A DNA stretch of 64,000 nt from Candidatus Iainarchaeum sp. (GTDB lineage: Archaea; Iainarchaeota; Iainarchaeia; Iainarchaeales; JAAZKV01): the NCBI GenBank assembly GCA_026397015.1, contig JAPLVR010000003.1, positions 192,001 to 256,000 on the forward strand, written 5' to 3'. Position 1 is the first letter of the stretch, and each line of letters opens with the position of its first letter. Shown piece after piece: positions 4,160 through 60,380 of the stretch. A model generated the notes under the pieces. That model worked only from the letters and a program-made list of their open reading frames with translations, made no database searches and had not been told where the DNA came from. The translations under genes and the position numbers were made by a program.

Positions 4160-4223
4160 GCCTAAATGCCCCCCACAGAGAATGTTTATATACAACCAAG
4201 AAGCTAATTTGTTAAGTGGCATT

Positions 4224-4841: not shown

Positions 4842-4902
4842 GGGCGTTTAATCCCTGCAGCCACCCGCAACAATTTTTAATTGAATCCACAGAAACTTCA
4901 TT

Positions 4903-6021
4903 ATGATTCCGAAAAACATTTCCGAATTAGTTACCTTCTCGCCGAACAGGTTTGAGCCGATACATGACTGGTTCTACTATAAGGAAGGGTACGCAAAAAA
5001 ATTGGTTGAGTGGCTGGTAAAGGAATACAACCTGGAAGGCCCCATTTTTGACCCGTTCTGTGGAAGCGGGACAACAGTTTTGGCCGCAAAACAGATGGGC
5101 ATTGAAAGCATCGGGTGCGATGTTTCGCCGCTCGCGGTTCTTGCATCAAAAGTAAAAACAAGGAATTATGAAGTTGAAACGCTGAAAAAAAAGCTGGGCG
5201 AATTCAGGGAAATGAAAGTTCCTCCCGAGCAGTTGACGCCGCGCGACGAAAGGCTGAGAAAAATAATCAGCAGGGGAAACTGGGAAGAAATGCATTTTTT
5301 GAAAAAAAAGATTGAGGAAATTGGAGACGAAAAAGCAAGAGATTTTTTTTATTTGGCAATGGTTGATTCTTTCGGTGCAGTGGCGCAGGTGGTAAAAGTC
5401 GGGGGGTCGCTGAGAAGGGCGAAAAAAAATGTTCCATCAATGAAAAAGTTTTTCGAGAGGAAATGCGAGAGGATGATAAGGGATTTGGAAAGGGGGAAGA
5501 AGGGGGTGGAGCCGGAAGTAATCGAAGCCGATGCAAGGGTTTTCAACCTCGAGGAAAATAGTATTGGTTCCATAATTACTTCACCGCCGTACTTGAACAA
5601 AATCGAATACACTACCGTTTACAAGCTCGAGCTTATTTTGTTTTTCAAGGTGCAGGAAACGCAATTGAGGGCTTTCATCGGGGATGAGCCTCAAAACATC
5701 AGGGGAACAAAAATAAAAATCAAAAATTTTCAAAAGTTTCCGCCGATTGCGCAGGCATACTTTGAAGATATGGAAAAAGTGATGGTGAACTGCTTCCGCT
5801 GTTTAAAGCCGAAAGGGAAAATGGTTATTGTTGTGGCTGGAGGATGCCTGCCAGATAGAATAATTCAGAGCGACGAAATTTTGTGCGATTTGGGGCAGGC
5901 GATTGGATTCAAAATAATCGATATTATTGCCGCAAGAGAAATTTTTTGCCACGCAAACAGGTCGATAAAAATCGGGAAAGTAAGGGAAAGCGTTATTGTT
6001 TTGGAGAAGCCGGAAGTTTGA
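4903..6021 (+). CDS. Orphan DNA amino-methyltransferase (N4-C/N6-A family)
   Basis: IHDWFYYKEGY, SAM-binding DPFCGSGTT preceding catalytic TSPPY. Confidence 0.88.
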   Translation: MIPKNISELVTFSPNRFEPIHDWFYYKEGYAKKLVEWLVKEYNLEGPIFDPFCGSGTTVLAAKQMGIESIGCDVSPLAVLASKVKTRNYEVETLKKKLGEFREMKVPPEQLTPRDERLRKIISRGNWEEMHFLKKKIEEIGDEKARDFFYLAMVDSFGAVAQVVKVGGSLRRAKKNVPSMKKFFERKCERMIRDLERGKKGVEPEVIEADARVFNLEENSIGSIITSPPYLNKIEYTTVYKLELILFFKVQETQLRAFIGDEPQNIRGTKIKIKNFQKFPPIAQAYFEDMEKVMVNCFRCLKPKGKMVIVVAGGCLPDRIIQSDEILCDLGQAIGFKIIDIIAAREIFCHANRSIKIGKVRESVIVLEKPEV

Positions 6022-6090
6022 AAAGAAAGGTATAAATACCATGAAGAACGCTATACTTCGGGAAGGATTTCCGATTTTTGAGGTGGTTTT

Positions 6091-12391: not shown

Positions 12392-12504
12392 TTTTGGGCG
12401 AAAGGCCTATCTATTAACAGTGTATATTTTAACAATAAAAAAAAGAAAAAGCAAAACCTTTAAATACAACCTCGATACACAAAATAATATTGGTTGCGAT
12501 TTCG

Positions 12505-15500
12505 ATGCGAAGACAAGTTTTGTTCTTATTTATGATTCTTCTTTCGGCGACTGTTTTTGCGGACTACTGTGTTAACAGGACTGGACCCGGTTATCTTGTG
12601 GGTTGCGGTGTGCTAGGAGTACAAAGCGGGTTTTCAACCTGCATTTATAACACCGACGCCGCCATGACTAAAATTAAGACTGTATTGAATTATACTGGAC
12701 CGAACTGCGGAGTAAGAGTTACTTGTTACAATATTGGCAGTGGCGCTAGTGCTGGTCTGCAAGTTTGTGCGGGATATGATACTGGTTGTTATGCGCCAGG
12801 CGCAGGGTCGTGCGTTTGCAGCCCGAATAGCCAATTTGCCCCTGAAACATGTTCAAATGGTTTTACCTATAAAACTTGTAACGGTAATGGTGACGGTTAT
12901 TCACAGGCGAACTGCCAGCGGATTGGCGGTAACTGCAGCGGTGGAGACATATTTTATACATCCAGGCTTAACACATCCTGCCCCCCAATAAACGGGCAAT
13001 GTGTTCAAGACGTTTATGGCGCCCTAAATGGCCTGGGATACTGGGAACAATCCTCAGGGGCAAGGGCTTACTGCGATACTGTGAATTATCATGGCCTTCA
13101 GGTGGCACAGGCATGCGTTAAAACAGATGGTTCATGTATCCCAAAGGTCTGTACAGCGAATGCGTATGAGACGAGGGTGTGCACCAACAACAAGGGATTC
13201 CAATGGAGACAATGCAACGGATCTGGAACAGGATACAACGCCGACTGGTCAGCCTGCATAACCATCCCGGGAGGAAACTGCACCACAACAACCGGCGACC
13301 AATTCTACACACTAAGAGCAAACACCACCTGCACCCAATCAGGACTAGCAGACGGATCATCATGCAGCCAAAACTACACTAACCAATTAAACTCACTAGG
13401 ATACAGCGGACCATACACAGGAACAAGAGTGTATTGTGAAAGCGGGTCATATGCAGGTTTTACAGCGGGAGAGGTGTGCGTAAAAACAGATGCAGCCTGC
13501 AACCCACCAATCTGCACAGCAAACGCATACGAAGCAAAAGTATGCGCCAACAACAAAGGATTCCAATACAGAAAATGCAACGCAAACGGAACAGGATACG
13601 AACCAGACTGGCAACCATGCACAGCACTGCCTGGAGGGGATTGTAAAACAATAACCGGGGATTTATTTTATACATCAAGACTGGAAGGCAAAAACTGCTC
13701 CCAATACGGGTTCGCAGGACAGACTGGATACTCGGCATGCGTACAAAGCATTAACAGAAGTGTTTTGGACGCAGTAGGATATACGGGACCATACATCGGA
13801 GCAAGAGCATACTGCGACGATGAAACATACCAAGGCGCAACTGCAGCAGAAGCATGCGTAAAAACAGATTCTTCTTGCGGAGCACCGTGCACAGTGGGGC
13901 AAATAGAAGCACAAACCTGTGACAATGACAATGGATACAAGTACAGAACATGCAACTCAACAGGAACGGCATGGAACGACTGGACCACATGCGCACCGCT
14001 ACCAGGAACAAACTGCGGAGCAGGAACAACCAAAATATTCTACAAAGCATTCCTCAACAAAACATGTGCGGAAGTCGCCCAGGGAAGAACAAATGTCTGT
14101 ATACAAGACGTATTCCAAATAGCGTGGAATAATGGGTACAGGGGCCTGGCAACGGGGGCAAAGGTATATTGTGATGATTACAGGACATCAAGCTTATACG
14201 GGGCAGGATTCTGCGTAAAGGTGGCTACGGAATGCGACCAGTCAGTCTGCACACCCGGAAAATACGAGGCAAGGGAATGCATAAACAAGAGGGCGGATAC
14301 CAAAATGCCAAGCGGATATCAATACAGGCAATGCAACACAACAGGGCAAGCATGGGGCGACTGGTCAACATGCGCACCAATACCGGGAATAAACTGCGGA
14401 ACCGGAATCACAAAAATATTCTACTACCCGAAACTCAACGTTACGTGTGCAGGGGTCGGGATACCGACAAGCGGACTATGCATACAAACAGTACTCCAAC
14501 AAGCAAAAGCACTCGGATACACCGGACCAGAAACAGGCGCAAGAGCATATTGTGATAATTACAGAACCGAAGATATATTCGGTGCGGGAGCATGCGTAAG
14601 AACGGACACAGGCTGCAATACCGGCTGCATATGCACCGACCAATACGACCCTGTTTGCGGAACAGACGGAAAAACTTATCCTAATGAATGCGCCGCGAGA
14701 TGCGCGAAAATAGCGGTCGCGTATGAAGGCGAATGCAAAGAAAACTGCGCAAAGGAAGGGGAAGGAATCTGCAACACATGCACACCGGGAAGCGGACCAA
14801 CGGAATGCTGCACCGGGCTGACAAAAATAACGCCCGCAAGTAAGCTAAATGATGATTGCACTTTGAAAAATATAGTCGGCGGACAATCATCAGTCTGCAC
14901 CCATTGTGGAGACGACATTTGCGGAACCGGAGAAAACAAATGCAACTGTCCACAGGATTGCAATCCCATTAAATGCGAAACAAGTAAAGATTGTTTAAGG
15001 GGTTGCATAGGGCCGAAAGCGACTTACGGTTCCTGCACGAACGGGCAATGTGTATATACTAGATGTGAAACGGATGGCAGTGGCATTGACAGATGTGCTG
15101 CAGACACCGCACCGCCAACGTGCGACAAAAGATGCGACGCGGACTGCGAAACCAACGCGGACTGCATGGTTACTTGCGCCCAAAATTTATGCGCGATTGG
15201 CGAAACCAATTGTGCAGAATGCCCTGAATACACCTGCAACAGAGAATCCTGCGAGTGTGAGCCGGTAGTAGTACCTGTACCGCGGTTTAATTTGACAGTG
15301 CATACTGGCTGGAATATTTTCTCGATACCCGGAGCATTGAGCCTACTGAGCAATAATTGCGATTCAAGCAGATTTAGAATTTACGAATACACCCCCTCTT
15401 CAATACCTTGGTTTGTTCCTGTAAGCAACGTTGAAATAGGAAAGGCATATTTACTATATTACCCTCTGGCAGATTGTTCGGTGAGAGGAACCATAACAGA

Positions 15501-15780
15501 GGCAATCAGTTCAAGCGAATTGCCGGCTGTCAGAACAGGCTGGAATTTCATACCTGTTCTTGTTGATATGATTGGAATGAAGGTGAGCGATCTTGTACCT
15601 GATTGTGGAGCCGTTAGGGCGTACTTCTACGATGCCGAAGCAGTTGGATTCGTTGACATAACTAATACTATTTTAACTTCAAGTGATTTAGGCCAAGGAT
15701 TCGGATTGTTTGCAATGAATGGCTGCACGGTTACAACACCATCGGAACCTGGCTTCCCTGCATTACCGGAGGCTGACTAA
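12505..15780 (+). CDS. Secreted Cys-rich repeat protein with Kazal domain
   Basis: Signal peptide; about five ~120-aa repeats (Y.G...GARAYC...CVKTD..C); CTDQYDPVCGTDGKTYPNEC Kazal; C-terminal GWN..S.P repeats. Confidence 0.85.
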   Translation: MRRQVLFLFMILLSATVFADYCVNRTGPGYLVGCGVLGVQSGFSTCIYNTDAAMTKIKTVLNYTGPNCGVRVTCYNIGSGASAGLQVCAGYDTGCYAPGAGSCVCSPNSQFAPETCSNGFTYKTCNGNGDGYSQANCQRIGGNCSGGDIFYTSRLNTSCPPINGQCVQDVYGALNGLGYWEQSSGARAYCDTVNYHGLQVAQACVKTDGSCIPKVCTANAYETRVCTNNKGFQWRQCNGSGTGYNADWSACITIPGGNCTTTTGDQFYTLRANTTCTQSGLADGSSCSQNYTNQLNSLGYSGPYTGTRVYCESGSYAGFTAGEVCVKTDAACNPPICTANAYEAKVCANNKGFQYRKCNANGTGYEPDWQPCTALPGGDCKTITGDLFYTSRLEGKNCSQYGFAGQTGYSACVQSINRSVLDAVGYTGPYIGARAYCDDETYQGATAAEACVKTDSSCGAPCTVGQIEAQTCDNDNGYKYRTCNSTGTAWNDWTTCAPLPGTNCGAGTTKIFYKAFLNKTCAEVAQGRTNVCIQDVFQIAWNNGYRGLATGAKVYCDDYRTSSLYGAGFCVKVATECDQSVCTPGKYEARECINKRADTKMPSGYQYRQCNTTGQAWGDWSTCAPIPGINCGTGITKIFYYPKLNVTCAGVGIPTSGLCIQTVLQQAKALGYTGPETGARAYCDNYRTEDIFGAGACVRTDTGCNTGCICTDQYDPVCGTDGKTYPNECAARCAKIAVAYEGECKENCAKEGEGICNTCTPGSGPTECCTGLTKITPASKLNDDCTLKNIVGGQSSVCTHCGDDICGTGENKCNCPQDCNPIKCETSKDCLRGCIGPKATYGSCTNGQCVYTRCETDGSGIDRCAADTAPPTCDKRCDADCETNADCMVTCAQNLCAIGETNCAECPEYTCNRESCECEPVVVPVPRFNLTVHTGWNIFSIPGALSLLSNNCDSSRFRIYEYTPSSIPWFVPVSNVEIGKAYLLYYPLADCSVRGTITEAISSSELPAVRTGWNFIPVLVDMIGMKVSDLVPDCGAVRAYFYDAEAVGFVDITNTILTSSDLGQGFGLFAMNGCTVTTPSEPGFPALPEAD

Positions 15781-18078: not shown

Positions 18079-18660
18079 ATGAGGAAAGCCCCCAAAAAAA
18101 CAAATCCTGTTCAAAAAAAACCTTCGCAGAAAAAGCCCCGGGTTTTATCTTATGAAGAGGCCTGGGGCGGTTTTATGCCCGAAGTGGAAGAGGCACTCAT
18201 CAAGGAAAGATTGGCAAAAATGGCCCGAATTGAAAAGAGATTTGAAAGGGCTATGCCCTCCAAGGAAAGAAGCGTTTACTGGATTTATGCAAAAAGAAAA
18301 AAAGGAAATTATCCCGCGCATACCGAACGCGGCGGAAAGTGGCTGGTTTTCGTTGACGAACCTTACATTGATGCTGTTTGGAAAAAAATAAAAAAGGCGA
18401 CGGCGGACGGGCGCCTCGGTGGCTACACAAAAGTTTCAACGGCAAAACCCCTTTCGGAGGAAATGGCGAAGCGTACCGGCATGGCGGACAAGCATGTGAG
18501 AGTGGTATGTGTTTACACATATGACTATCAGGACAAAGTGGATTCCATGCGAATAAGGGAAGAACTAAGGAAGATGGGGATAATCAAAAAAATACCTTAC
18601 AAGCCCGATTATGCTGCCGGAAAATACGGCGTCGAAACTGTTGTAGAATACGAGGCTTGA
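18079..18660 (+). CDS. DUF1917/Bles03-like (eIF4E-like fold) protein with basic N-terminus
   Basis: GGKWLVF, W..I..AT..G.LG..KVST, VCVYTYD, YKPD. Confidence 0.8.
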   Translation: MRKAPKKTNPVQKKPSQKKPRVLSYEEAWGGFMPEVEEALIKERLAKMARIEKRFERAMPSKERSVYWIYAKRKKGNYPAHTERGGKWLVFVDEPYIDAVWKKIKKATADGRLGGYTKVSTAKPLSEEMAKRTGMADKHVRVVCVYTYDYQDKVDSMRIREELRKMGIIKKIPYKPDYAAGKYGVETVVEYEA

Positions 18661-20185: not shown

Positions 20186-23100
20186 ATGATCAATTTGGAA
20201 TTTTTCAAAAAAAATCTGATCTGTTTCGCAGTTCTATTTTTCGCTTCGATTATTCCGGGCGTTTGCGGTGCCGCAGTGCAAATTGACATAAACGGGCAGT
20301 ATTATCTCGGCGGAGCGGTGACAATATCCGGAACAGTTGCTCCGGCGGCTGCAAATGATTTGAATATTTATCTTACCAACGCGTCAAGCGGCGCGGTATT
20401 TGACAGCAACACTGTGGCTGCCGATGCAAACGGGGCGTATTCCATAACATACAATTATTTGAGCGCTGGCGACTATAACGGGCTGGTAACAGATGCAAAT
20501 TCAAGCGCGACCAATAGATTTTACCTAAAAATAACCAATTATGCAAGCATAGACATCAATTTTGTTGGAAGTATGCCGCCTTTAAATATCGGCCAGGCAT
20601 TGGTTGCGAATTTTACTTTGAGGGATTATAATAATGCAGTGGTAACAAGTGATTACAACATCGCATTAAAACTTGTTGATTCGGATGGAACCGTTGTCAA
20701 GGATCAAAACAACTATGTTCCAAAATCAGGCGGGGCAAACAGAACTGATGATTATAACTTCGGCGCTCTTCCCACTCCAGGAACATATACAATAATAGTG
20801 GACAACGGAGTAACTGGGTTTAATGTTCCAGTGATAGCGTACAACTTATTTGTTAATTCGTTCAATTCCAGCACCGGCGACCCCCAAAAGATATTTGCCG
20901 CGGGACAGGACGCGAATGTAAAGGTGTTCATGAGCAACACAAGCGGAACCCCGATAACAAGCGGAACTATTTCAGGAACAATACAAGCGCCAAGTAGCGT
21001 TACACAATCCCCACTAACTTTCACCCCATACGGCGGCTATTTCATGGCGAATACGGGCGCATTAAGCACGCAAGGAGAATATACAATAAGAGTTAGTGCG
21101 AGCGCACTCGGTTACAGCCAAAACCAGGAATTAAAACTTAAAATCCAAAGCTACTCGATGTTATTGCAGCCGAAAAAGAATGAAAGCGCCGGAAAGAAAG
21201 AGAGGATGAAGGGAGCATACAGCACTTCTTCGCAGGCGATTCTTGAACTGAGCATAACCGACTTGAACACAAACATGGCTCTCGCAGGATTGGATTTGAA
21301 TAGCGCCTGCAATAAAAACAAATTATCGCTTACTGTTTACAAGGCGGGTTCGACTGTTGGAACAAGCGTTACTTTCGATGTGAATAATGTGCCGGATAAG
21401 ACATGCGATTTGAATTTTGTTACGCCTTCATCAACAGGAGAATATCGTTACAAACTGGTCGGCACGGACATGAATGTGGCAAATACTGTGCAGGATTTGG
21501 CAACATCAACCGGATTGAAAGTGCAGAATCAGATGGTGTTCTTCGACGCGGTTGATCCATCTGCATATGCGCAGGATTCGAGCAATTCGTGGAAATTCAC
21601 TTTCTACAAAGATGAAAACATCGGGTTTGTTGCAAATGTAATTGATTTGAATGTGAGTGATGATGCGGATGTTTCTGCAGTAAGTAAGGCAACAATAATG
21701 CAGAACGGCCAGCGCATAACAATAACCAACACTGTTGATAAAAATTATCTTGATTATAACGCGGAGTCGCATGTGCTGTTAATGCTCGGAAGCGCACTCA
21801 CTGATAATAATGTTTCCGCAGGGTTCGTTCCGATAGAATTCACGGTAGATGTAAATTCAAATAATGACGCGATGGATGCGAATAGCATTACTGCATTCGG
21901 CGCGTTCAAATACAAAATAATGAATATTTCTTCGATGCCGGCGGATGAAAACGGCGGCTCAAAATCAACAATGTTCGGACCGCCGGTATTCCACTCAGAT
22001 ACCGAAGGAGTTTACCTTCAGGTTTCGGTTACGAATGCGGGCGGAACTGCGATAAAATATGCCAATGTTGAGCTTTACTCTCTTAGAAATGTAGATGACT
22101 GGAATGAACTGAGCGTTGCCCCGATAAACGCGATTTCGGATAACAATAATCTTATTACGAGCAGCGCCGGAACGGCACATCTTCACTTGGGCACACTCTC
22201 TTCAGGGATTTACTTCGGGCAGGTGAAAGTAACAAACGGAAGCACGATTGATTATGGGGATTTCTTTTTGATGGTGAAAAGTTACATTGTTAATGCACAG
22301 CCATTGACAGTGGAAAACGGCCAGTGCATGTTCATGAATTCAATCGGACAGAACAGCGATTTCAACATGGTGATAATGGCGATGAACCCTGCGCTGGGAA
22401 TGCCTGTTAATGATTATGTTCCGGATGAAAACGGCACGAAAGTGTTCCTCATGAGCATGGGGGAAGAATTCAAGGAACCGACAATATACGATGTTACTTT
22501 GAGCAGCCCGTTTGATTTCAATTGTACGGGAATGATGGGTCCTCCGGGCGAAGTGCAGACATTCAAAGCAATGACAGTTCACCCGAACGGCGATTCTAAC
22601 TGGCAGGCGGGAAATTACAGGGTGCTTGTGAAAGGAAGTTCTGCTGAGCTTGGAGCGGAAGCCGGAGACGGCTTTTTCAGGGTGCAACCATTTAAATTCA
22701 GTTTAATGCCGTTGGCAATGACGGGCATGGGCGGCGGAGACCAAAAGATGCTTAATGCGACACCGGGTTCGGCTTTTGATTTCAATGTCATATCGGACAA
22801 GAGCATTACTCTGAGAGCAATTCTTGTTGATGAAAAAACACAGCAGGATGTTAACAGCAATATTAATTTTGTTAACAACAGCAACACAGTCAATGCAAAT
22901 GAACTCACAACCGTTTCGGTTCTTATCCCGTCAAATATCCCTTTATCTGAATACCCGCTGATAGTTTTCGGTGATGACACTTCGGGCAACCAGGCGGAGC
23001 AGGATTTATTCCTAAGAATGAGCCTTTTCAATTTGGTTGTGCCAAGCGGTATTGGAAATCAAAATCTGCAGTATCAGCAAAGCAATACGGGGGCATATGA

Positions 23101-24709
23101 CACAAACATTTTGGATGATGCTACAAATGGAAACCTGCGCCATTCAAGCGGCCCTGGCGACAGCGGGCATTATTGTGATGGAAATGTTACTGTCGGCGAC
23201 ATCAACTATAACAGATGGATTATGGCCGGCACGGATTGGGCCAGAAATGATTTGAATCATTTAATGCTTGTTAACACAATCGATCAAAATGTTTGGATTG
23301 ATTATGACAATGACTGCAATTTTGTTCTGGATGATGCGGACAGCAACAGACATGTTGGGGATACAAACATAGGGTCAATGACTGATGGAAACGCCATGCT
23401 CGTAACGGACATCACCTCAATGGCATTAACATACATGAAAAAGCCGTTTGATTTTAATAATTCAAGCAGGATGCAGGGAACTTTTATCGGGCAATATCCT
23501 GTTGATGAAAATATAGGCGTGCCGATAATAATTAAGAATTTGGACGGCACCACTACTGCGGATATTAACGTAACAATAAACAGGGCGATGCTACTGCCTT
23601 CCTTTGGAATGGGAATGCCACAGGAAACAACCGGGTGGACGGCGTGGCAGGGCACAACCGACGCCGACGGCTTTGCAAGGGCAATCTTGAATGTGTCAAG
23701 ACCCGGAACGTACATGCTTGAAATAAAAGCGACCAATACTGCGGGAACGTCACAAATATTCAAGCCGTGGGAAGGAATGGTAGTTGAAGCGAAGAAGTAC
23801 AAAACTGAAATGTTCCTGCAGAACCAAATAGGAGATATTACAATTGATTTCAACAATGTGCTGGCTGGGAGCGGCGTATTTATTGAAGATGACGAAAGCA
23901 GCGGTCCCGGAGATAATGGCGACGGTTTAGACCAGACATGGTACGATGCAAATTACGGGCTGTTTGATGAAAGCGCAAGAGACTTTGATTTGGATAAGGA
24001 TGGCGCCAAAGACAAAAACTTTTATTTCATAAAACTGAACGATGCGTTCCACACGGCCAATTCTGGAATGGACGCAAATATTCTGGTTGACGATGACACT
24101 AATTTTTGCAACATACTGTACAGAGGGCCAGACAACAATAGAGATGATTGCGACCAAAATGTTTTGGGCGAAGTCGGATTGAATGAAGGCTGGTTTGACA
24201 ACACAAGCGGGCTCTTCCTGTGCCCGTACAGCAACGCCCAAGGTTCAATGCAAAACACTTCATGCGGAAACAATGAAGCGGTTTATGCGATTTCAGAGAA
24301 CGACACAAATGTCAATGATAATGATGCGATAATAATCAACAGAACCACCTGGAGGGCGCTTGATAATACAGGAAACAATTGGGGGTTATGGATGATAAAG
24401 GACGGCATAAACAATGCCGCAGGTTCAAGCACAAACACATGGACTATATTCAAAGATCTTCAGGGAGTAAAACTTAATTCTTCAGGCACGATGAGCGCAA
24501 AGCTTTTCAGGACAAGCGCCAGGCCACAGATGAACCAGCAAAATACGATGATTCCTATGCCAGGAACGTATCCGGGAACGATAACCGGCGGCATAGGAAA
24601 AATTAATTACGGCAATCTGCCGGATTCAAATTATTCAATGGCGGTCGATGTAAACATCAATAATGATTTGCAAACGCAATACGAAAACTTTGAAATAAGG
24701 TCGTCATAA
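20186..24709 (+). CDS. Giant secreted beta-rich surface protein with pervasive D-x-N motifs
   Basis: Signal peptide; Ig-like G.Y.I.V strands; Asn/Asp/Thr-rich. Confidence 0.85.
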   Translation: MINLEFFKKNLICFAVLFFASIIPGVCGAAVQIDINGQYYLGGAVTISGTVAPAAANDLNIYLTNASSGAVFDSNTVAADANGAYSITYNYLSAGDYNGLVTDANSSATNRFYLKITNYASIDINFVGSMPPLNIGQALVANFTLRDYNNAVVTSDYNIALKLVDSDGTVVKDQNNYVPKSGGANRTDDYNFGALPTPGTYTIIVDNGVTGFNVPVIAYNLFVNSFNSSTGDPQKIFAAGQDANVKVFMSNTSGTPITSGTISGTIQAPSSVTQSPLTFTPYGGYFMANTGALSTQGEYTIRVSASALGYSQNQELKLKIQSYSMLLQPKKNESAGKKERMKGAYSTSSQAILELSITDLNTNMALAGLDLNSACNKNKLSLTVYKAGSTVGTSVTFDVNNVPDKTCDLNFVTPSSTGEYRYKLVGTDMNVANTVQDLATSTGLKVQNQMVFFDAVDPSAYAQDSSNSWKFTFYKDENIGFVANVIDLNVSDDADVSAVSKATIMQNGQRITITNTVDKNYLDYNAESHVLLMLGSALTDNNVSAGFVPIEFTVDVNSNNDAMDANSITAFGAFKYKIMNISSMPADENGGSKSTMFGPPVFHSDTEGVYLQVSVTNAGGTAIKYANVELYSLRNVDDWNELSVAPINAISDNNNLITSSAGTAHLHLGTLSSGIYFGQVKVTNGSTIDYGDFFLMVKSYIVNAQPLTVENGQCMFMNSIGQNSDFNMVIMAMNPALGMPVNDYVPDENGTKVFLMSMGEEFKEPTIYDVTLSSPFDFNCTGMMGPPGEVQTFKAMTVHPNGDSNWQAGNYRVLVKGSSAELGAEAGDGFFRVQPFKFSLMPLAMTGMGGGDQKMLNATPGSAFDFNVISDKSITLRAILVDEKTQQDVNSNINFVNNSNTVNANELTTVSVLIPSNIPLSEYPLIVFGDDTSGNQAEQDLFLRMSLFNLVVPSGIGNQNLQYQQSNTGAYDTNILDDATNGNLRHSSGPGDSGHYCDGNVTVGDINYNRWIMAGTDWARNDLNHLMLVNTIDQNVWIDYDNDCNFVLDDADSNRHVGDTNIGSMTDGNAMLVTDITSMALTYMKKPFDFNNSSRMQGTFIGQYPVDENIGVPIIIKNLDGTTTADINVTINRAMLLPSFGMGMPQETTGWTAWQGTTDADGFARAILNVSRPGTYMLEIKATNTAGTSQIFKPWEGMVVEAKKYKTEMFLQNQIGDITIDFNNVLAGSGVFIEDDESSGPGDNGDGLDQTWYDANYGLFDESARDFDLDKDGAKDKNFYFIKLNDAFHTANSGMDANILVDDDTNFCNILYRGPDNNRDDCDQNVLGEVGLNEGWFDNTSGLFLCPYSNAQGSMQNTSCGNNEAVYAISENDTNVNDNDAIIINRTTWRALDNTGNNWGLWMIKDGINNAAGSSTNTWTIFKDLQGVKLNSSGTMSAKLFRTSARPQMNQQNTMIPMPGTYPGTITGGIGKINYGNLPDSNYSMAVDVNINNDLQTQYENFEIRSS

Positions 24710-24741: not shown

Positions 24742-26253
24742 ATGAAAAGGATTTTGGCAGTTTTAATAATGCTTGTTGCGATGGTCGGCTTTGCGGCTGC
24801 AGCGAGCGTTTCTCTCTCGCTAAATTCGCTGGAAACGATTGCGGAAGGCGAAACAGTCACGCTGACCGCCACTGTCACCGCCGTCGGGGATTCTGTGGGC
24901 AATGTTTCACTTCAATTGGGCGACCTGTCGCCGGGCGTAAGCACTTCAGACTCATCAACTCAATCCGTTGGGACATTGAGTTCCGGGCAAAGTTCTTCGA
25001 AGAGTTGGACAATTAGGGGGGATGTCGCAGGAACTTATTCTTTTAACGTCACGGCGTCCGGCACGGATGTAAGCGATGTGTTTCAGAATGCTTCAATGGT
25101 TGTGAACACCGCTGCATTTATCGAAATAAGCGACAAGACCTGCAGTGAAACGACGATGGATATCGGAGAAACAATAACAATGAATTTTATTGTAAAAAAC
25201 ACCGGTGGAAGTTCTGCAACTGTAACGACGACAATGAGCGGTTATTCAAGCAGATTTACTCTCACATCCGGAAGCGTAACTTCAAGCGCGGAGATAACGG
25301 CCGGTTCACAAAGCAGCAAATCTTATTTGTTCACGGCGGCAAGCGCCGGAACGGCAACAATAACCGCCACGGTAACTTCCACAGAAAATAATCCGACGGC
25401 ACAAACTTGCGCCGTAACAATAAACGCCGCTTTAGATACGAGCGACGACGATTCAGAAACTGTCAGCGGAGTCCCCGCAGGGGATATAATACTCAGCAGG
25501 GTGCTTGATCAAAATCCAAGTGTGGAAGAAATAACTGCAATCTTAAGTTCTGCCGGTTTAACGCAGGAATCGATTGACAGAGCAGTAAGCCTGCTTGAAA
25601 AAATCGGCGTAAAAAAAGAAGTAATTGTTCGTAAAAGAACGTTGACTAACGGCACCACAGCTTACACTACCACAATAACATTCACAATAAAAAATAAAGA
25701 CGGCACAAATCTTTTGAAAAATGTCAAAGTAATTTTGGAAATTCCGAAAACGGTTGCGGAAAATGCTTCCGAACTTGTGATTCCTTCAAATGAAAATTAC
25801 ACCATAATAAAGGCCGACCCAATACTTGAATTTGAAATTGCGGAAATAGCGCCAAACGGCACTGGAAAAGTTGACATCGACATAAATAAGCAGATAAGCG
25901 GCGCGTTGGCGGATTCAATATTACAAGCAGTAGTTGCCGATTTCGAAGAGGCCGCTGATTTGTGCGTCGGAAAAAACTGTGATGATGAAAATCCCTGTAC
26001 GACTGATGCATGCAGTGGGGGCAATTGCTCAAATACCAGCGTCACTAATGGAACTGTGTGCGGCGAGGGAAAAAGTTGTAAGGCAGGGGCATGTGTTTTA
26101 ATCGCTGCTGAAGAAAATCAAGAAGGAGAGCAAACTCCTGAGCAGAAGGCGGCACAGGACCAGACCAATTTACTACTCATAATCGGCGCAGTAGTTGCAC
26201 TAATACTTATCATCGCAATAATTGGGGCAATTGTACTCAAAAAAAGAAAGTAA
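24742..26253 (+). CDS. Membrane-anchored surface protein (Ig-like domains, CDD.NPCT.D.C motif, C-terminal TM and KKRK tail)
   Basis: Signal peptide, Ser/Thr-rich beta domains, terminal TM helix. Confidence 0.8.
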   Translation: MKRILAVLIMLVAMVGFAAAASVSLSLNSLETIAEGETVTLTATVTAVGDSVGNVSLQLGDLSPGVSTSDSSTQSVGTLSSGQSSSKSWTIRGDVAGTYSFNVTASGTDVSDVFQNASMVVNTAAFIEISDKTCSETTMDIGETITMNFIVKNTGGSSATVTTTMSGYSSRFTLTSGSVTSSAEITAGSQSSKSYLFTAASAGTATITATVTSTENNPTAQTCAVTINAALDTSDDDSETVSGVPAGDIILSRVLDQNPSVEEITAILSSAGLTQESIDRAVSLLEKIGVKKEVIVRKRTLTNGTTAYTTTITFTIKNKDGTNLLKNVKVILEIPKTVAENASELVIPSNENYTIIKADPILEFEIAEIAPNGTGKVDIDINKQISGALADSILQAVVADFEEAADLCVGKNCDDENPCTTDACSGGNCSNTSVTNGTVCGEGKSCKAGACVLIAAEENQEGEQTPEQKAAQDQTNLLLIIGAVVALILIIAIIGAIVLKKRK

Positions 26254-29949: not shown

Positions 29950-30111
29950 AAATCCCAAAAAGTTAATTTTTTTGCCCAAAAACAAAGAAGTGCTACATAA
30001 CCGCACCGGCTTTTGAACAATCACTTTACTTTCGGTCTTTTACCGTGTGAAAAAAAATTACAAAGTAAACAAAAAAGCAAGCTTAAATACACAAAAGACA
30101 TTATTTTGTGG

Positions 30112-33021
30112 ATGAAAAAAGCCGTCTTAATCGCGGGCATTCTTTTGTCGCTAATCATACTTTCTGGGGCAGCGCTCGCGGAGGATTGTGTTTGTACCGA
30201 TGTATACGAGCCCGTATGCGGAGTCGACAAAAAAACATATGGAAATGAGTGCAACGCAAACTGCGCCGGAATTGAAATTGCTTATAAGACAGGATGCTCT
30301 CACACCTGCGAAGATATCTCCTGCACACTTACCTGCCCATATGGAGTTAAAGCTGATGAATACGGCTGCAAGCTCTGCGAATGCAACGAAATTAGCTGCG
30401 CCGGAGAAGGAATGGGAATCGCGGTAATACCAAATCCGCCGAGCTGCTGTGAGGGACTCAATCAAATACCCCCGAAAAGCGGGGACCTCTTAGGCATTTC
30501 CGGAATATGCACTGCAAAATGCGGCAACGGAAACTGCGACACAGGAACAGAAACTAATTATAATTGCCCCGAAGACTGCCAGCCAGTGCCATGCAAAAAC
30601 GATGGAGAAGACATTCCGGTTATTGAGAATCCTCCTGTATGCTGTGAAGGATTAAGGGCTGAACCAATATATGACAGGAAAGGAGTTAGTGCGATATGCA
30701 AAAAGCCGACCCCTTGCATCGGCACCATCGACGAACAAGGGTGCAAAGTAGTGAAATGCGATGATGGCAGGTATGAAAGAAATTGTCCAACCACCCCGAC
30801 ACCGGTAACATGCGAAAAGCAGGAAGATCCTGCAACTAAATGTGTAATAAAAAAATGCAGCGATGGATACATTGATAGATGGTGCCCGACACAGCCCACT
30901 GAATGCAAAACTTATATTGATGAAAAGGGCTGCAAAGTAACTTCCTGCGCAGATGGGACCAGACGAGATTGTCCGACGCCCGCACAAGAGGAATGCACGA
31001 AATATGTTAGGGAAGACGGCTGCGTAGTGAAGAAGTGCAAAGAGGGTGCCGTAATGATTGATTGCCCGACTAGTACAGTACTTCCTGCAAGTGCGGTACC
31101 CACAAGCTGCATCGAAGTGAGAGATGAAAGCGGAAATGTTGTAAGCAGGCAATGCCAAGCGGTTGCAGTAAATGAAGTGCCAATTTTCACAACCGCCTGC
31201 CCAACAGATGAAGACAATAAGAGAAAAATAGAAGCGTGCAGGCTCTCAAACGGAAATCCATTTACCGAAGCATCCTCAAATGGGTGCAAAGTAATCAATT
31301 GCCGGATGGCAACATCAAGTACCACCAGTGGCGACGCAACGCCGGCCGTTGCAACAACCTGTCCGGGGCAGCCAATTGAGGAAATTAGAAAAATAAAGGA
31401 TGACTGCAAGCAAAATGCCGGCGAAATAATTGTGAAGTTTGATGGTGGCGGATGCGAGAAATATTACTGCATAAAAAACTGGGAGCAGGACTGCAGAAAG
31501 GAAAAGGACATTCCTGCTGAAAAGAAGGATTCCTGCGAAAAGCAGGGCGGGCAATTTATATTAAAAACAAACGAAAAGGGCTGCATTACATTCATTGACT
31601 GCATCACGACCGGACAGAGTAGCTATGCTTCATCGGAAATAAAAAAGACGCCCGATGTTGCAGAGCTCACTGATTTGGCTTTTAAACTGGAAAGCCTGAA
31701 AATAGAATTTGAGGGCCTTGGAAAGAAAGCAGACGGAATTGCAGCATATTACGAAGAAAACGGAAATGAGGCGGATGCGAACAGGTTCAAGAGGGTTGCA
31801 GGCATGCTCTACTCCGCAAAGGACAAAATCGATGAAATCAAGAATATGATACGGGAAAACCTTGATAACTTCGATGAAAGCATGGCAAGGGAAGTAAAAG
31901 ATTCCATAAGGTACATAAAGGAAATACTGCTGAAAGACATTCTTTACATTATGCTCGGTGGGGAGGGAAAAGCCGGGGAAACCTGCAAAAACATTTCCTG
32001 CTTTGAGAGGGCATTAAGGGCTTGCCTCCCGACAACGATAACAGTAAGCGAAGGCGGAAAAGAAATGGAAATAAATATTCTCGGGGTGGAGGACAACCTT
32101 TGCAAATTAGAGGCAAAGACGGGCGATGAAAGCGGAACATACGAAATGATCTGCAAAATCCCCGACTTTTCTATGATAGGCTTGGGGCAATTCAAGCCGG
32201 AAAAATACTGCGAGGGAACGCTGCTTGATTATATGGCAGGAAGTATAAGCCCAAAAACGTCAACAAGCAACCAGATACAAGCCCCATTAGAAGGACCAGA
32301 GCTGATAATAGAGTCTGTGAAATGCGTATTTAATAATAACGCCAGTGGAACGCAGAAATGCTACGACAGCACAGGGGCATACGGGTGCGCAAATGAGCCT
32401 AAAAGAGACAAAAGAGACTACTCAACAATGTGCACGCCCAAAACGGAACAGATTAAAGTCGGGGAAAGGATCGCAGTGAACGGCGGCGGGGCATATGAAG
32501 GCAAAACACTGACAATAAACTTAACGGATACAACCGCCACAAACACCGACGAAACGACTATAAAAAGCGCATGGGCATTAAAAAACGGCGATGAAATGCT
32601 GAAAACCGCCGAAACCATAAGGGGCAACACAAGCTCACAGGACGATCTCAGCTTGATATTCCGCGAATACATTGCCACAGGCACCTATATCCGCATCACG
32701 GGCATAGTGCCAACAGGGGATAAATATGCCGTAACGCTGGTAACCACCTGCGAAACGTCCGATTACACTTCGTGCACTGCTGAAGTAAAGGGGGCCAAAG
32801 GCACAAAGCTTACTTGGAAAAGCACATGCGGAGGATATGCATACACAACAGTGGACGGGGAAAACGAATATGCAGAATTCAAATGCGGATTCTGCGACAG
32901 CTTAGACGAAGCGGGCTGTGAAAAAACAGAAGGATGCACCACCGTCCGTATTTCTGCACCACCAACAGGAGCAACAAGCGATACTGGTAAATTTGTTAGA
33001 TGCGAGGCGATAGTTCAATGA
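30112..33021 (+). CDS. Secreted Cys-rich modular protein (Kazal, antistasin-like, short Cys repeats, coiled coil, TWKSTCGGYAYT module)
   Basis: Signal peptide from ATG 30112; CTDVYEPVCG..KTYGNEC; C...CPYG...DEYGC..CEC. Confidence 0.82.
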   Translation: MKKAVLIAGILLSLIILSGAALAEDCVCTDVYEPVCGVDKKTYGNECNANCAGIEIAYKTGCSHTCEDISCTLTCPYGVKADEYGCKLCECNEISCAGEGMGIAVIPNPPSCCEGLNQIPPKSGDLLGISGICTAKCGNGNCDTGTETNYNCPEDCQPVPCKNDGEDIPVIENPPVCCEGLRAEPIYDRKGVSAICKKPTPCIGTIDEQGCKVVKCDDGRYERNCPTTPTPVTCEKQEDPATKCVIKKCSDGYIDRWCPTQPTECKTYIDEKGCKVTSCADGTRRDCPTPAQEECTKYVREDGCVVKKCKEGAVMIDCPTSTVLPASAVPTSCIEVRDESGNVVSRQCQAVAVNEVPIFTTACPTDEDNKRKIEACRLSNGNPFTEASSNGCKVINCRMATSSTTSGDATPAVATTCPGQPIEEIRKIKDDCKQNAGEIIVKFDGGGCEKYYCIKNWEQDCRKEKDIPAEKKDSCEKQGGQFILKTNEKGCITFIDCITTGQSSYASSEIKKTPDVAELTDLAFKLESLKIEFEGLGKKADGIAAYYEENGNEADANRFKRVAGMLYSAKDKIDEIKNMIRENLDNFDESMAREVKDSIRYIKEILLKDILYIMLGGEGKAGETCKNISCFERALRACLPTTITVSEGGKEMEINILGVEDNLCKLEAKTGDESGTYEMICKIPDFSMIGLGQFKPEKYCEGTLLDYMAGSISPKTSTSNQIQAPLEGPELIIESVKCVFNNNASGTQKCYDSTGAYGCANEPKRDKRDYSTMCTPKTEQIKVGERIAVNGGGAYEGKTLTINLTDTTATNTDETTIKSAWALKNGDEMLKTAETIRGNTSSQDDLSLIFREYIATGTYIRITGIVPTGDKYAVTLVTTCETSDYTSCTAEVKGAKGTKLTWKSTCGGYAYTTVDGENEYAEFKCGFCDSLDEAGCEKTEGCTTVRISAPPTGATSDTGKFVRCEAIVQ

Positions 33022-57740: not shown

Positions 57741-60380
57741 GTGAAAAAAGCCCTTTTAATAATCGCTGTAAGCGCCATTCTGCTCTTGTTTGGGTGCATA
57801 ATAGAAGGCCCCATGATGGAAGACATCGCAAAGAGTTCAGGAACAATTAACAGCTTTCTTGCAGAATACCCCGATGCGGAAGTAACCATCCAATTATTGA
57901 AAAAAGATGTTGTGGCAGCCGATCCAGATTTTATCGGATACTGCTCACAAGTCGAACCAAACGAATATTACAAAGTAACATTCACAGACAAAGCCTCCGG
58001 CTTGAAGGCTTTTGCATTCGTTGACAAAGACATAGGGGTAGTGTGCGCCCACAAAGAAGGCACGGAGAAAAAATGCGACAAAACAAAGGGCGCGGAATGT
58101 GAAACTGATTACGATTGCAGGGTTGGCTGCAAAAAAGAACCCTGCCCGCAACCGACATGCAACAAAGAAACCTGCAAATGCGAACCAGAGAAAAAGGAAG
58201 ACAAATGCAGTTGGATGCCACCACAACCAGGAGAAACAACCTGTGCCATGGTAATCGGGCCAGGATATTATTATGACTCGACAAATGTTGCTCAAACAAC
58301 GAGCTGTAAATATTTCTCAGGGGGCAGCGGATGCAGCGGCCCTCCGTTTAAAACAATTGAGGAATGCCAAGCGACCTGCGAAAATGAGCGCCACAAATGC
58401 AAAACGGATGCAGATTGTATGGTATTATACGAAGTGTTGGAAAAATGGGGCTGCAATGCAGGATGCTACAATAGAAACACTGTTTCTGGCGACAAAAAAT
58501 GCAAAAACATAAAATGGGAACTTATTCCTCCAGAAAACTGCAAATGCATAAATAACCAATGCAGGCTTGCCACTGAAAAATGTGGAATAACGAATTGCCA
58601 TGGATTGGATGTCACCTGCGGTTTTGTGACGAAACCACAAGCGTGCACTGCAGTTTACGAACTTGGGGACAGGTGCAGGAAATACGCTTCCTGTGGCACG
58701 ATTAACGGAGAATGCCTGCACAAATTGGAAAAAAAATTCGAACAATGCAAATCCTGCGTCGAAAAATGCAAGGATGAATTTGGAAACGACCCTGGGAACT
58801 ACATTAACCTCTTTAAATGCGAAGCAAAATGCGAGCCTGTTGCGGAACCCATTTGTGGCGACGGAAAGTGCGAGGCGAGCGAACAGAATCCACTAACTTG
58901 TGTGACTGTCGGCGGCAGGTGCGCGGGAAGCACGGGAATTGCCGAAACAATACCTTCTGTTAGCGCAATTTCGACAATAGATTCGAATAGCATAGACTCA
59001 AATATTGTGGATTCGAATAGCATGGAAGGCAGCACGGGAACCGGCAGCGCGGTAGTGGGCACAGGGGTGGCGGTGGATAGATGTGAAATAATAGAGGATT
59101 GCAGGCCGAATCCAAATTATTGCCCGGCAGACTGCAAAGAACCGATAAAAGAAACGGTTAAATGTGTATTTAGCGGCGCGAATGCTGCCCAAATTTGTTA
59201 TTCCATAAAAGGAAGCTGCACTGCCACGCCTATAACAACAGGCAGTACAAACGGCATGACAACAACAATCAGCACGAGTGCTGCAACGTGCACAGTGGAT
59301 GTGGAAGGGTATAAAGGGGAAAAAGTAACTTGGAAAAGCACCTGTGGGGGATACGCTTATACAACAATGGAGGGAATAAACGATTACGCAAAATTCCAGT
59401 GCCAAAAAGAATGTGAAACGGATAATGACTGTTACATATGCGGAGGCGACGGAGGTTCCAGCGGCACATCCTGCATAAACGGAATATGCAAGTGTGGTGA
59501 AAATACAGATCAAGGCCCTGTCACATGCACCTCGTGGGGAAAAACATGCGACAAACGGTGCGGCGCATCATGTGAAATTGATGCAGACTGCCCGCAAATA
59601 ACAAACTATCCGGAATGCGCCCTTGACGGCGCCTGCCTAAGAAATGTGTGCAATAAAGAAACTTGCAAATGCGAAACCCAAAAAAATACATGCTTGTCGA
59701 ACGCCGACTGCAAAAAAAATGAATTCTGTAACCGCGAAGGCTGCGTAGAAAAAGGAATTTGCACGGAACTTGGCAATGCCTGCATAACGCTCTATGACCC
59801 TGTTTGCGGGTGCGACGGAAAAACTTACTCAAACAGCTGCTTCGCAAATATGGCAAAAGTCTCAGTGGCATACAATGGGGAATGCGGGGCATGCGCGAAA
59901 GAAGGAGAACATACTTGCCCTAGTTGTACTGGAGGCTGGCACACGAAATGCTGCAGTGGATTGACAGAGATCGCACCTTCAGAATCATTTAATGAGACAT
60001 GCAACAACTTACAAGTATTAGGCCCGGGACCAGTCTGTACTAAATGTGGGAATGGAATCTGCGGAACAGGGGAAAACATTTGCAACTGCCCACAGGACTG
60101 CAAGGAACCCGTAAAAGAGACTGTTAAGTGTGTGTTCAGCAATGCCGGCGAAACACAGAAATGCTATGATGTCACAGGGACATATGGCTGTACAGCCAGC
60201 GCAACTCCTCCAATTGGCACTACGACTTCGTCGGCGACCGGCGCAACTGCTACATGTACGGTAGATGTGAAAGGAACCAAAGGGACAACAATAACCTGGA
60301 AAAGCACATGCGGAGAGTACGCATACACAATAATAGACGGGGAAAGCGAGTACGCTAATTTTGAATGCCAAGCAGAATAG
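57741..60380 (+). CDS. Cys-rich modular surface lipoprotein (Kunitz-like, Kazal, two TWKSTCG.YAYT modules)
   Basis: LFGC lipobox; six-Cys Kunitz-like pattern ending GC...FKTIEECQATC; CITLYDPVCGCDGKTYSNSC Kazal. Confidence 0.85.
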   Translation: MKKALLIIAVSAILLLFGCIIEGPMMEDIAKSSGTINSFLAEYPDAEVTIQLLKKDVVAADPDFIGYCSQVEPNEYYKVTFTDKASGLKAFAFVDKDIGVVCAHKEGTEKKCDKTKGAECETDYDCRVGCKKEPCPQPTCNKETCKCEPEKKEDKCSWMPPQPGETTCAMVIGPGYYYDSTNVAQTTSCKYFSGGSGCSGPPFKTIEECQATCENERHKCKTDADCMVLYEVLEKWGCNAGCYNRNTVSGDKKCKNIKWELIPPENCKCINNQCRLATEKCGITNCHGLDVTCGFVTKPQACTAVYELGDRCRKYASCGTINGECLHKLEKKFEQCKSCVEKCKDEFGNDPGNYINLFKCEAKCEPVAEPICGDGKCEASEQNPLTCVTVGGRCAGSTGIAETIPSVSAISTIDSNSIDSNIVDSNSMEGSTGTGSAVVGTGVAVDRCEIIEDCRPNPNYCPADCKEPIKETVKCVFSGANAAQICYSIKGSCTATPITTGSTNGMTTTISTSAATCTVDVEGYKGEKVTWKSTCGGYAYTTMEGINDYAKFQCQKECETDNDCYICGGDGGSSGTSCINGICKCGENTDQGPVTCTSWGKTCDKRCGASCEIDADCPQITNYPECALDGACLRNVCNKETCKCETQKNTCLSNADCKKNEFCNREGCVEKGICTELGNACITLYDPVCGCDGKTYSNSCFANMAKVSVAYNGECGACAKEGEHTCPSCTGGWHTKCCSGLTEIAPSESFNETCNNLQVLGPGPVCTKCGNGICGTGENICNCPQDCKEPVKETVKCVFSNAGETQKCYDVTGTYGCTASATPPIGTTTSSATGATATCTVDVKGTKGTTITWKSTCGEYAYTIIDGESEYANFECQAE

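Follow-up and report, generated by a model that had tools for sequence, protein, structure and literature searches.

A D-x-N motif selected on cell-surface proteins of Iainarchaeia and its possible reading as a signal for asparagine modification

PglB uses the sequon D/E-X-N-X-S/T (PMC7226087), and O-glycosylation in Bacteroidetes follows the motif D-(S/T)-(A/I/L/V/M/T) (PMC8550257). In the archaea studied so far, S-layer proteins, anchored proteins and pilins are glycoprotein classes (PMC5131992), and in Haloferax volcanii AglB-dependent glycans have been located at three non-canonical sites (PMC8241124). The titles, abstracts and passages of the literature that we searched mention neither a D-x-N sequon nor a D-x-N enrichment in surface proteins. 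Here we describe such an enrichment, starting from a window of 64,000 nucleotides (the whole stretch of DNA analysed, C5:192001-256000) within the 0.9-Mb genome of 6 contigs of Candidatus Iainarchaeum sp. One gene of this window encodes a protein of 1507 aa, hereafter P0001, in which the tripeptide is strongly over-represented, and the same signature recurs in other exported proteins: D-x-N is a selected linear motif on cell-surface proteins of Iainarchaeia. The gene and its beginning are as follows.

20186..24709, + strand: gene for the secreted, D-x-N-rich surface protein P0001, 1507 aa (single open reading frame and its translation)
20186..20272, + strand: N-terminal signal peptide region of P0001, about residues 1-29, ending ...GVCGAA (hydrophobic N-terminus in the translation; helix predicted at 4-21); the approximate end at residue ~29 is read from the translation

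The initial annotation, made from the letters alone, had put the number of D-x-N tripeptides in P0001 at about 55, for a rough expectation of 10-15. Both figures stood: exactly 55 were counted, and the composition of the protein itself predicts 12.5. Over 20,000 shuffles of P0001 the mean was 12.5 with a standard deviation of 3.2 and the maximum reached 27, giving z = 13.2 for the natural sequence, in which 47% of all Asp residues lie inside the motif. The first nine Asp residues (34, 58, 73, 80, 96, 103, 123, 147 and 156) all open a D-x-N, Pro never occupies x (0/55), and 9/55 motifs continue with x-S/T, in agreement with what had been noted then. After the correction for composition that the same annotation had proposed, the D-x-N enrichment persists (55 vs 12.5) and the pairings to be compared with it are not raised in P0001: E-x-N occurs 0 times for 4.4 expected, the reversed order N-x-D 8 times for 12.5, and N-x-S/T 26 times for 25.7, which is the chance level. 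D-x-D is present 12 times for 9.1 expected.

P0001 is rich in N (10.7%) and in D (7.8%), and the excess could be thought an artefact of composition, of local D/N-rich patches, of internal repeats or of a motif in the DNA. We give this explanation practically no credence, as it is refuted by the shuffle, gap, repeat and frame controls. The expectation is already calculated per protein, and no shuffle exceeded 27 motifs where 55 are observed. Gaps of 0, 2 and 3 residues between D and N gave ratios of observed to expected (O/E) of 0.72 (D-N, 9 vs 12.5), 1.04 (D-xx-N, 13) and 1.20 (D-xxx-N, 15). No tandem repeats were found in the sequence of P0001, its self-BLAST returned the identity match alone, without internal repeats, and the spacing of the motifs along the chain is near random, all of which bears out the earlier description of motifs dispersed through non-repetitive sequence; on this spacing, the idea of a periodicity or a solenoid was rejected as well. 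The pattern GAYNNNAAY was matched 55 times in the reading frame of the gene; the other two forward frames gave 0 and 2 matches and the reverse strand 3. Codon choice for D and N is identical within and outside the motifs, and the motif is kept across homologues despite synonymous codon variation. The D-x-N signal sits at the protein level.

The comparison was extended to the whole genome, whose open reading frames (ORFs) were called crudely, by taking the longest ORFs with a minimum of 100 aa, and sorted by hydrophobicity:

Cytoplasmic-like class, 485 ORFs: D-x-N 264 vs 268.8 expected, O/E 0.98
Exported class (N-terminal hydrophobic segment, at most two transmembrane segments), 132 ORFs: D-x-N 448 vs 207.3 expected, O/E 2.16

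Equal enrichment in cytoplasmic proteins had been named in the initial annotation as an outcome that would speak against a code; what we found is an excess in the exported class (2.16) and none in the cytoplasmic one (0.98). Among all 400 a-x-b pairs, D-x-N is the strongest outlier of the exported class (z 16.7). E-x-N stands at 0.84 in these proteins, and N-x-D, D-x-D and D-x-S/T are likewise not enriched, with D-x-D ranging from 0.96 to 1.3 over P0001 and the exported proteins. The excess is concentrated in about 20 proteins, including P0001, proteins of about 930 aa, pilin-like proteins and some lipoproteins. Three of the ~930-aa proteins carry 37, 33 and 19 motifs for 5.7, 4.7 and 4.1 expected, respectively. 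Pilin-like ORFs with class III signal peptides total 79 for 25.6 expected, in a set of 23 ORFs picked by a regular expression that caught some cytoplasmic proteins too, and they include pilins of 102-168 aa with 3-4 motifs each. A hidden Markov model of the P0001 family matched P0001 alone in this genome, and 8 local BLAST pairs were found among the 20 richest proteins. Domains recognized in the rich proteins are Big_13, fn3, Big_7, Laminin_G_3 and HYR, besides class III signal peptides, and two of these proteins contain a MopE-like metal-binding motif. In one anchored protein, 35 motifs (6.1 expected) precede the membrane anchor and 2 (0.4 expected) lie in the 262-aa tail; two anchored orthologues summed give 66 vs 11.0 before the anchor and 2 vs 0.7 after it.

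The motif is also conserved in a manner that distinguishes it from other Asp and Asn residues of the same protein. In six close homologues of P0001 (59-72% identity), motif Asp and Asn are identical in 88% and 86% of cases and invariant in 69% and 71%, compared with 57% and 62% identical and 32% and 31% invariant for non-motif Asp and Asn, and with 41% invariant residues overall. The x position is of average conservation (66% identical), and 35/55 motifs are kept in all seven close sequences. An exhaustive search of representative sequences for P0001 homologues gave 25 clusters, down to 26% identity. Each of the 24 aligned family members shows an enrichment, of 2.8-8.4 fold, and contains 22-75 motifs; N-x-S/T across the family has an O/E of 0.85-1.69. 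At 23-54% identity, 39% of the P0001 sites remain D-x-N and density is constant. This turnover is uneven, sites 1043 and 1221 being kept in all aligned distant rows and other sites in none. On average, motif D and N are conserved at 0.47 and 0.46 in distant homologues compared with 0.28 overall, the level of Cys and Gly. The most persistent sites are the following.

20471..20500, + strand: D96-Y-N98 and D103-A-N105, each D-x-N in 13/15 distant homologues and invariant in the six close ones
23099..23107, + strand: D972-T-N974, kept in 12/13 distant homologues; in the model, a loop directly before helix 215-220 (residues 975-980), capping this short helix
23312..23320, + strand: D1043-C-N1045, D-x-N in 12/12 distant homologues aligned at those columns
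23846..23854, + strand: D1221-F-N1223, D-x-N in 12/12 distant rows; in close homologues NFD in 3/6 and NFN in 1/6

Residue preferences were taken from 937 motifs in 18 representatives, and from a wider set of 2071 motifs. In the former, Pro occurs 5 times at x and once at +1 for 32 expected, and 38 times, a normal value, at -1; in the latter it occupies +1 in 13 cases for about 75 expected. Half-motifs (DxD, DxS, NxN and TxN) are at 0.25-0.36 of expectation among the 937. V, L, I, A, F and Y predominate at x and +1, about half of the motifs having V, I, A, F or L at +1, and I and L are raised at +3 in the exported proteins of this genome. The commonest substitutes are N, S and T for the motif D, and D, T and S for the motif N; replacement of N by D reaches 9% in the motif vs 13% for non-motif N. 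These alignments argue that D and N are selected as a pair and that x is free.

The relatives sampled all belong to the phylum, and family ranges are drawn from 101 genomes within the order. Members of the P0001 family are patchily distributed: full-length copies were found in 8/101 of these genomes and in none from the same genus, a locus search with the P0001 alignment gave one contig of a metagenome-assembled genome, and a search of the ESM Atlas gave weak leads (<= 0.84). A family of type I anchored surface proteins, represented here by a 955-aa protein (G000 C3:116438-119305, L113) and by relatives L124-L152, is D-x-N-rich in nearly all of its members. The membrane-proximal domain of the 955-aa protein, of about 120 aa and without Pfam or NCBIfam name, is present in 63/101 genomes of the order; in 29 proteins from relatives that carry it we counted 492 D-x-N for 101.7 expected (4.8 fold), with at least 2.7 fold in 26/29 and 12 families represented. 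Word-index searches for this domain and for the AglB C-terminus returned self or 4 close relatives only. Two other orders of the class also contain rich proteins (61 vs 8.5, 68 vs 12.2 and 46 vs 10.8). For 12 relatives sampled over 100 kb each, O/E was 0.68-3.55 in the exported class, varying with the proteins that the sample happened to contain, and 0.57-1.15 in the cytoplasmic one. A double-motif DNA pattern matches 99/101 genomes, but its reversed-pattern control varies widely and the result is a pointer only. In one record (L063, G042:C3:20001-40000), the minus-strand ORF 4446-6812 contains a run of X, and 19 motifs for 7.0 expected come from this partly unreadable gene.

P0001 has no membrane segment beyond its signal-like one, and N, G, S, T and D are abundant in it. 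Pfam gave weak matches to MG2 and Y_Y_Y, below cut-off, and the Pfam and NCBIfam searches returned no named family, and none shared with SlaA/SlaB. AlphaFold2 (AF2) models are all-beta. The C-terminal half reached a predicted local distance difference test score (pLDDT) of 74.7 and a predicted template modelling score (pTM) of 0.67; the N-terminal half was poor (pLDDT 47.3), and residues 40-320 alone were used. In fold searches these models matched macroglobulin (MG), filamin and FN3 domains at Z 7-10 and, in the same range of Z 7-10, the S-layer proteins Sap, SbsC, Haloferax csg and SlaB, which we read as a generic beta-sandwich signal. P0001 is composed of tandem Ig/macroglobulin-like beta-sandwich domains, and it is a candidate canopy protein of an S-layer.

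What could such a motif be for? We tentatively regard D-x-N as a linear recognition motif for an extracytoplasmic modification of Asn, most likely glycosylation, which we consider possible, short of an even chance. According to this model, proteins of the P0001 type would be exported by Sec and the motif would then be read outside the membrane by the modifying enzyme. A basic side chain of the transferase would receive the Asp at -2, in the way that PglB R331 receives the -2 Asp in the Campylobacter sequon, and Asn would be modified regardless of Ser/Thr at +2. Abundant structural surface proteins (S-layer-like, anchored, pilins) would be selected for a high density of sites. The occurrence of the modification, the enzyme responsible and the role of Lys379 of AglB, discussed below, are all things that we infer. 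Several features are consistent with the model: the restriction to exported proteins, the unrelated folds that carry the motif, the coupling of D and N, the enzyme-like strictness as to which residues are used and in which order, the exclusion of Pro, random spacing, and turnover of sites at constant density. In addition, the rich classes (S-layer-like, anchored, pilins) coincide with the glycoprotein classes of studied archaea, and the motifs of PglB and of Bacteroidetes, both anchored on Asp, provide precedents, as do the non-canonical AglB-dependent sites of Haloferax volcanii. In a more specific and more doubtful version, AglB or a second transferase of the GT-C type would read D-x-N plus a non-Pro, usually hydrophobic residue via the -2 Asp and independently of Ser/Thr at +2, which would constitute a new N-glycosylation sequon.

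The machinery for such a reaction is encoded in the genome. Its sole STT3/AglB lies on the same contig as the window (G000 contig C5:19728-21851, L001:1390-3513; PF02516, 1.9e-29, above cut-off). The Asp of external loop 1 (EL1; EFD) and the acidic motif align with STT3A, and the Glu of EL5 (GEE) aligns with AfAglB-L. Where human STT3A and P. furiosus AglB have WWDYG, this AglB reads WWNQG, an alteration of the WWD motif that had been predicted in the initial annotation. Of 63 AglBs of the class, 41 have D as the third WWD residue, 14 have N, 5 S and 3 G, so that Asp is replaced in 22/63, recurrently in several families. Binding of the +2 hydroxyl is ascribed to the Asp and Trp of WWD, a motif reported to be highly conserved (PMC7226087); the loss of its Asp in 22/63 AglBs fits a relaxed recognition of +2. 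Further along, Lys379 sits invariantly 11 residues after EL5 Glu368 in 30/30 AglBs, and Glu368 aligns with E360 of AfAglB. PglB R331, the reader of the -2 acid, lies 12 residues after E319 (PMC7226087). A whole-protein AglB profile aligns PglB only from residue 337, and an EL5 sub-profile found no oligosaccharyltransferase (OST). Other glycosylation genes are an AglH-like GT4, seven GT2 matches and a second GT-C (PMT_2-like), on the same contig as AglB. They are grouped in part in an island (G000 C5:19.7-61 kb) that contains AglB, the AglH-like GT4 (22905), five of the seven GT2 and the second GT-C (57810-58274). A D-x-N-rich protein of 926 aa (62620-65400) adjoins this island.

A number of observations weigh against the modification. 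To our knowledge, all characterised OSTs need Ser/Thr at +2. In P0001, S/T at +2 is at chance level (9/55 vs about 8.8 expected), and the 1.3-fold excess over 71 rich proteins (450 vs 338 expected) is modest, hydrophobic residues being raised at +2 as well. Nor does the state of WWD go along with the motif. The surface proteins of genomes with canonical WWD (G039, G042, G022 and G026) are equally D-x-N-rich, and one WWN genome (G044) showed no enrichment in 100 kb (0.68) vs 2.64 for the WWD genome G039. S/T at +2 over the 71 rich proteins, from 48 genomes, is at 1.39 with WWD and 1.28 with non-D (permutation p 0.06); a first look had given 1.37 and 0.97, a contrast that shrank in this larger, objectively chosen set and was dropped. 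WWD state as a driver of enrichment was likewise rejected, as no relation was seen in the 100-kb samples of the 12 relatives. The initial annotation had suggested a sequon read through the -2 Asp alone and an inspection of AglB to support it: the motif and its restriction to exported proteins stand, as does the altered WWD, but the WWD change neither tracks the motif nor co-varies with its enrichment. Lys379 is invariant in D-x-N-poor and D-x-N-rich genomes alike, and its match with R331, drawn only from the offset from Glu, is a lead only. Positional conservation is high for glycosylation sites (69-71% of motif D/N invariant vs 41% overall), and N-x-D replaces D-x-N in some orthologues.

The distribution of the motif among extracytoplasmic sequences raises further objections. 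In polytopic proteins the difference between outside loops (20 vs 14.0, 1.43) and inside ones (16 vs 14.9, 1.08) is weak. The AglB ectodomain holds 29 D-x-N for 35 expected over 30 genomes. Exported giants of 2000-3000 aa of the same cell are not enriched (11 vs 9.7; 10 vs 10.7), nor are two exported proteins of the window, at 12490-15780 and 30013-33021, the latter being described as follows.

30013-33021: 1002-aa exported protein with an antistasin-like Cys-rich match (2.6e-05), D-x-N 1 vs 2.8 expected

The poverty of this last protein in D-x-N shows that export and large size do not by themselves entail the signature in this cell. Furthermore, in the AF2 models the motif Asn lies at most one residue from a predicted strand start in 13/37 mapped cases vs 9/76 for other Asn (Fisher p 0.005), a bias that suggests a structural role. 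Finally, the modification is a prediction from sequence statistics.

The strand-start bias leads to an explanation without any modification, in which D-x-N would be a structural device: a loop Asp would cap the backbone in an Asx-turn and Asn would open the next strand; both side chains would be exposed, those at x, +1 and +3 being turned into the core, and the pair would set strand register and protect strand ends. Over the 37 mapped motifs, Asp is in coil in 24/37 and Asn in strand in 22/37. The residues at x and +1 are mostly hydrophobic, so that D and N in a strand would share the exposed face, and I/L is raised at +3. Conservation of D and N like that of Cys and Gly (0.47 and 0.46 vs 0.28), substitution mostly by N/S/T at D and D/T/S at N, avoidance of Glu, which is unable to make an Asx-turn, and the lack of the motif in enzyme ectodomains would all follow. 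We judge this role, which together with cation binding is the main rival of the modification, to be unlikely. Of the mapped motifs, 24/37 are away from strand starts; some are found within strands or at their ends, others in loops or at a helix cap. Asn does not readily form strands. A generic cap should be less selective, with S, T or D allowed at i+2 and N allowed at i, whereas D-x-N alone is enriched. Other beta-sandwich exported proteins of the same cell lack the motif, and domain 3 of P0001 holds one, domains 1 and 2 having five each. The motif is also found in tiny Cys-rich pilin heads and in ConA-like domains, and the proposal does not account for the apparent restriction of this cap to a single archaeal class, as judged within the sampled phylum.

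Two other explanations appeal to the chemistry of the side chains. The initial annotation had proposed Ca2+ sites in a surface lattice as an alternative, for which we found no direct support. In its broader form, exposed Asp/Asn pairs would be low-affinity Ca2+ or Mg2+ ligands, stiffening domain junctions or bridging subunits in S-layer and pili. P0001 is very acidic (D 7.8% vs E 2.7%, with K+R 5.6%), the rich proteins would be polymers or lattice formers, two of them carry the MopE-like motif mentioned above, and the occasional swaps from D-x-N to N-x-D preserve the pairing of a carboxylate with an amide. In domain 2 of the model, four motifs at strand ends apparently face the same pole, which is not significant. 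P0001 also has one canonical DxDxDG loop, DLDKDG at residue 1268, which is not a D-x-N. Known Ca2+ motifs are otherwise not matched: the EF-hand-like continuation D-x-N-x-[DNS]-G occurs 0 times in P0001 and in 35/2071 motifs of the wider set, the cadherin type D-x-N-D-N 0 times and in 3/2071, and an RTX repeat was sought in P0001 and not found. The stronger ligand pair D-x-D is not enriched (0.96-1.3), motif N is replaced by D more rarely than non-motif N (9% vs 13%), and spacing is random rather than periodic. Three to four metal sites on a pilin head of 40-60 residues appear implausible, and a single carboxylate per site would bind weakly. Cation binding is very unlikely on this balance. Another chemistry or recognition of Asn, either Asp-assisted covalent cross-links, such as the isopeptide bonds of pili, or a site at which an assembly or sorting factor docks, is in our view scarcely probable. 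A strict amide beside a carboxylate would suit acid-assisted chemistry. We know of no precedent for 55 cross-links or docking sites per chain, however. An Asn-based isopeptide bond is known from the Saci_0406 threads, an archaeal surface filament, where it joins Asn57 to the N-terminal amine of Asp24 (PMC9715654); this bond uses the chain terminus and not an internal D-x-N. In addition, Lys is invariant at 25/56 positions in close P0001 homologues vs 41% for all residues, and none is near-invariant in the wide alignment. As Lys is not specially conserved, there is no conserved set of partners for cross-links, and isopeptide bonds were rejected.

Whichever function applies, the D-x-N signature is a simple, sequence-only marker for the structural surface proteome of these organisms, and the recurrent loss of the WWD Asp (22/63 AglBs) is a finding in its own right. 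Should the motif prove to be a new N-glycosylation sequon, it would explain the replacement of this Asp in a third of Iainarchaeia AglBs, and S-layer proteins, anchored proteins and pilins would carry one glycan per 20-30 residues. It would be the first OST-type sequon without a hydroxy residue at +2, a counterpart of the bacterial -2 Asp rule in uncultured DPANN archaea; the prediction of archaeal glycoproteomes would change, and new enzymes would become available for glyco-engineering of sites without N-x-S/T. In the case of a structural device, D-x-N would represent an unusually strict, lineage-wide rule for exposed beta-sandwich surfaces that could serve protein design.

The surroundings of the P0001 gene bear on the nature of the surface layer and on two further remarks of the initial annotation.

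24742..26253, + strand: downstream partner gene, 503 aa, with signal peptide, BatD/CARDB-like beta-sandwich (Pfam BatD 5.1e-08) and C-terminal membrane anchor (hydrophobic C-terminal stretch)
58977..59021, + strand: IDSNSIDSNIVDSNS linker (position verified) inside an 879-aa lipoprotein-like protein, 57741-60380

A homologue of the partner lies directly downstream of the P0001 homologue in 9/9 loci, our own included. The neighbour had been described as not enriched, which holds when it is taken alone (3 D-x-N vs 1.4 expected); the orthologue rows summed give 22 vs 9.8. The tandem linker noted in a separate protein is indeed present, and that 879-aa protein is not enriched overall (3 vs 2.4). 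From its architecture, the 503-aa protein may serve as the stalk or anchor in a surface layer of two components. Upstream of the P0001 gene, a 193-aa protein (18079-18660) matches Bles03 (PF08939, 3.2e-19), whose family name comes from a eukaryotic protein. Elsewhere in the window, a DNA methylase gene (N6_N4_Mtase, 4903-6021) is flanked by ORFs without Pfam match (4182-4841 and 6091-8340), and this neighbourhood may be a restriction-modification or mobile region.

P0001 and its partner echo the SlaA/SlaB pair of Sulfolobales, in which an anchorless secreted protein of about 1500 aa is likewise followed by a C-terminally anchored protein of about 500 aa, the association being found here in 9/9 loci. 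Gene order and architecture lead us to infer that they would form a surface layer of this kind. SlaB (8qox_B) is among the fold matches of P0001 (Z 9.9, root-mean-square deviation 14.6, 183 residues aligned), as a generic beta-sandwich. Unlike that system, the P0001 pair has no sequence family in common with it in Pfam or NCBIfam, and its lattice is putative. The Ca2+ codes (DxDxDG, cadherin DxNDN and RTX GGxGxD) resemble D-x-N as short Asp-based motifs repeated in many copies in acidic extracellular beta-proteins. They are longer, contain Gly, are usually periodic and allow D/N exchange, whereas D-x-N is randomly spaced and 35 and 3 of 2071 motifs fit the first two.

The known glycosylation motifs share other features with D-x-N. 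The Bacteroidetes motif, carried by exported proteins, is also a lineage-wide, Asp-anchored triplet whose acceptor is followed by a hydrophobic residue (PMC8550257), but that acceptor, Ser/Thr, comes right after Asp and is O-linked, while in D-x-N the Asn at +2 is the candidate acceptor. The canonical archaeal AglB sequon N-X-S/T is found in the same protein classes, excludes Pro at +1 and lies on exported or extracytoplasmic parts; AglB and the genes of the lipid-sugar pathway are present here. It differs in that N-x-S/T is near chance in P0001 (26 vs 25.7), D-x-N does without the +2 hydroxyl and this AglB has WWN, not WWD. Compared with Campylobacter PglB, D-x-N needs no Ser/Thr at +2 (9/55 in P0001; 1.3 fold in 71 proteins), Glu is unused (E-x-N 0 vs 4.4 in P0001; 0.84 in exported proteins), the enzyme would be an archaeal AglB and the glycan is hypothetical. 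The two resemble each other in the exclusion of Pro around Asn and in their exported targets, and also in the acid at -2 of Asn as far as Asp is concerned; the putative reader would again be a single-subunit enzyme of the STT3 family. In PglB the basic residue lies 12 positions after the EL5 Glu, and its possible counterpart in the AglB described here is a Lys 11 positions after the homologous Glu.

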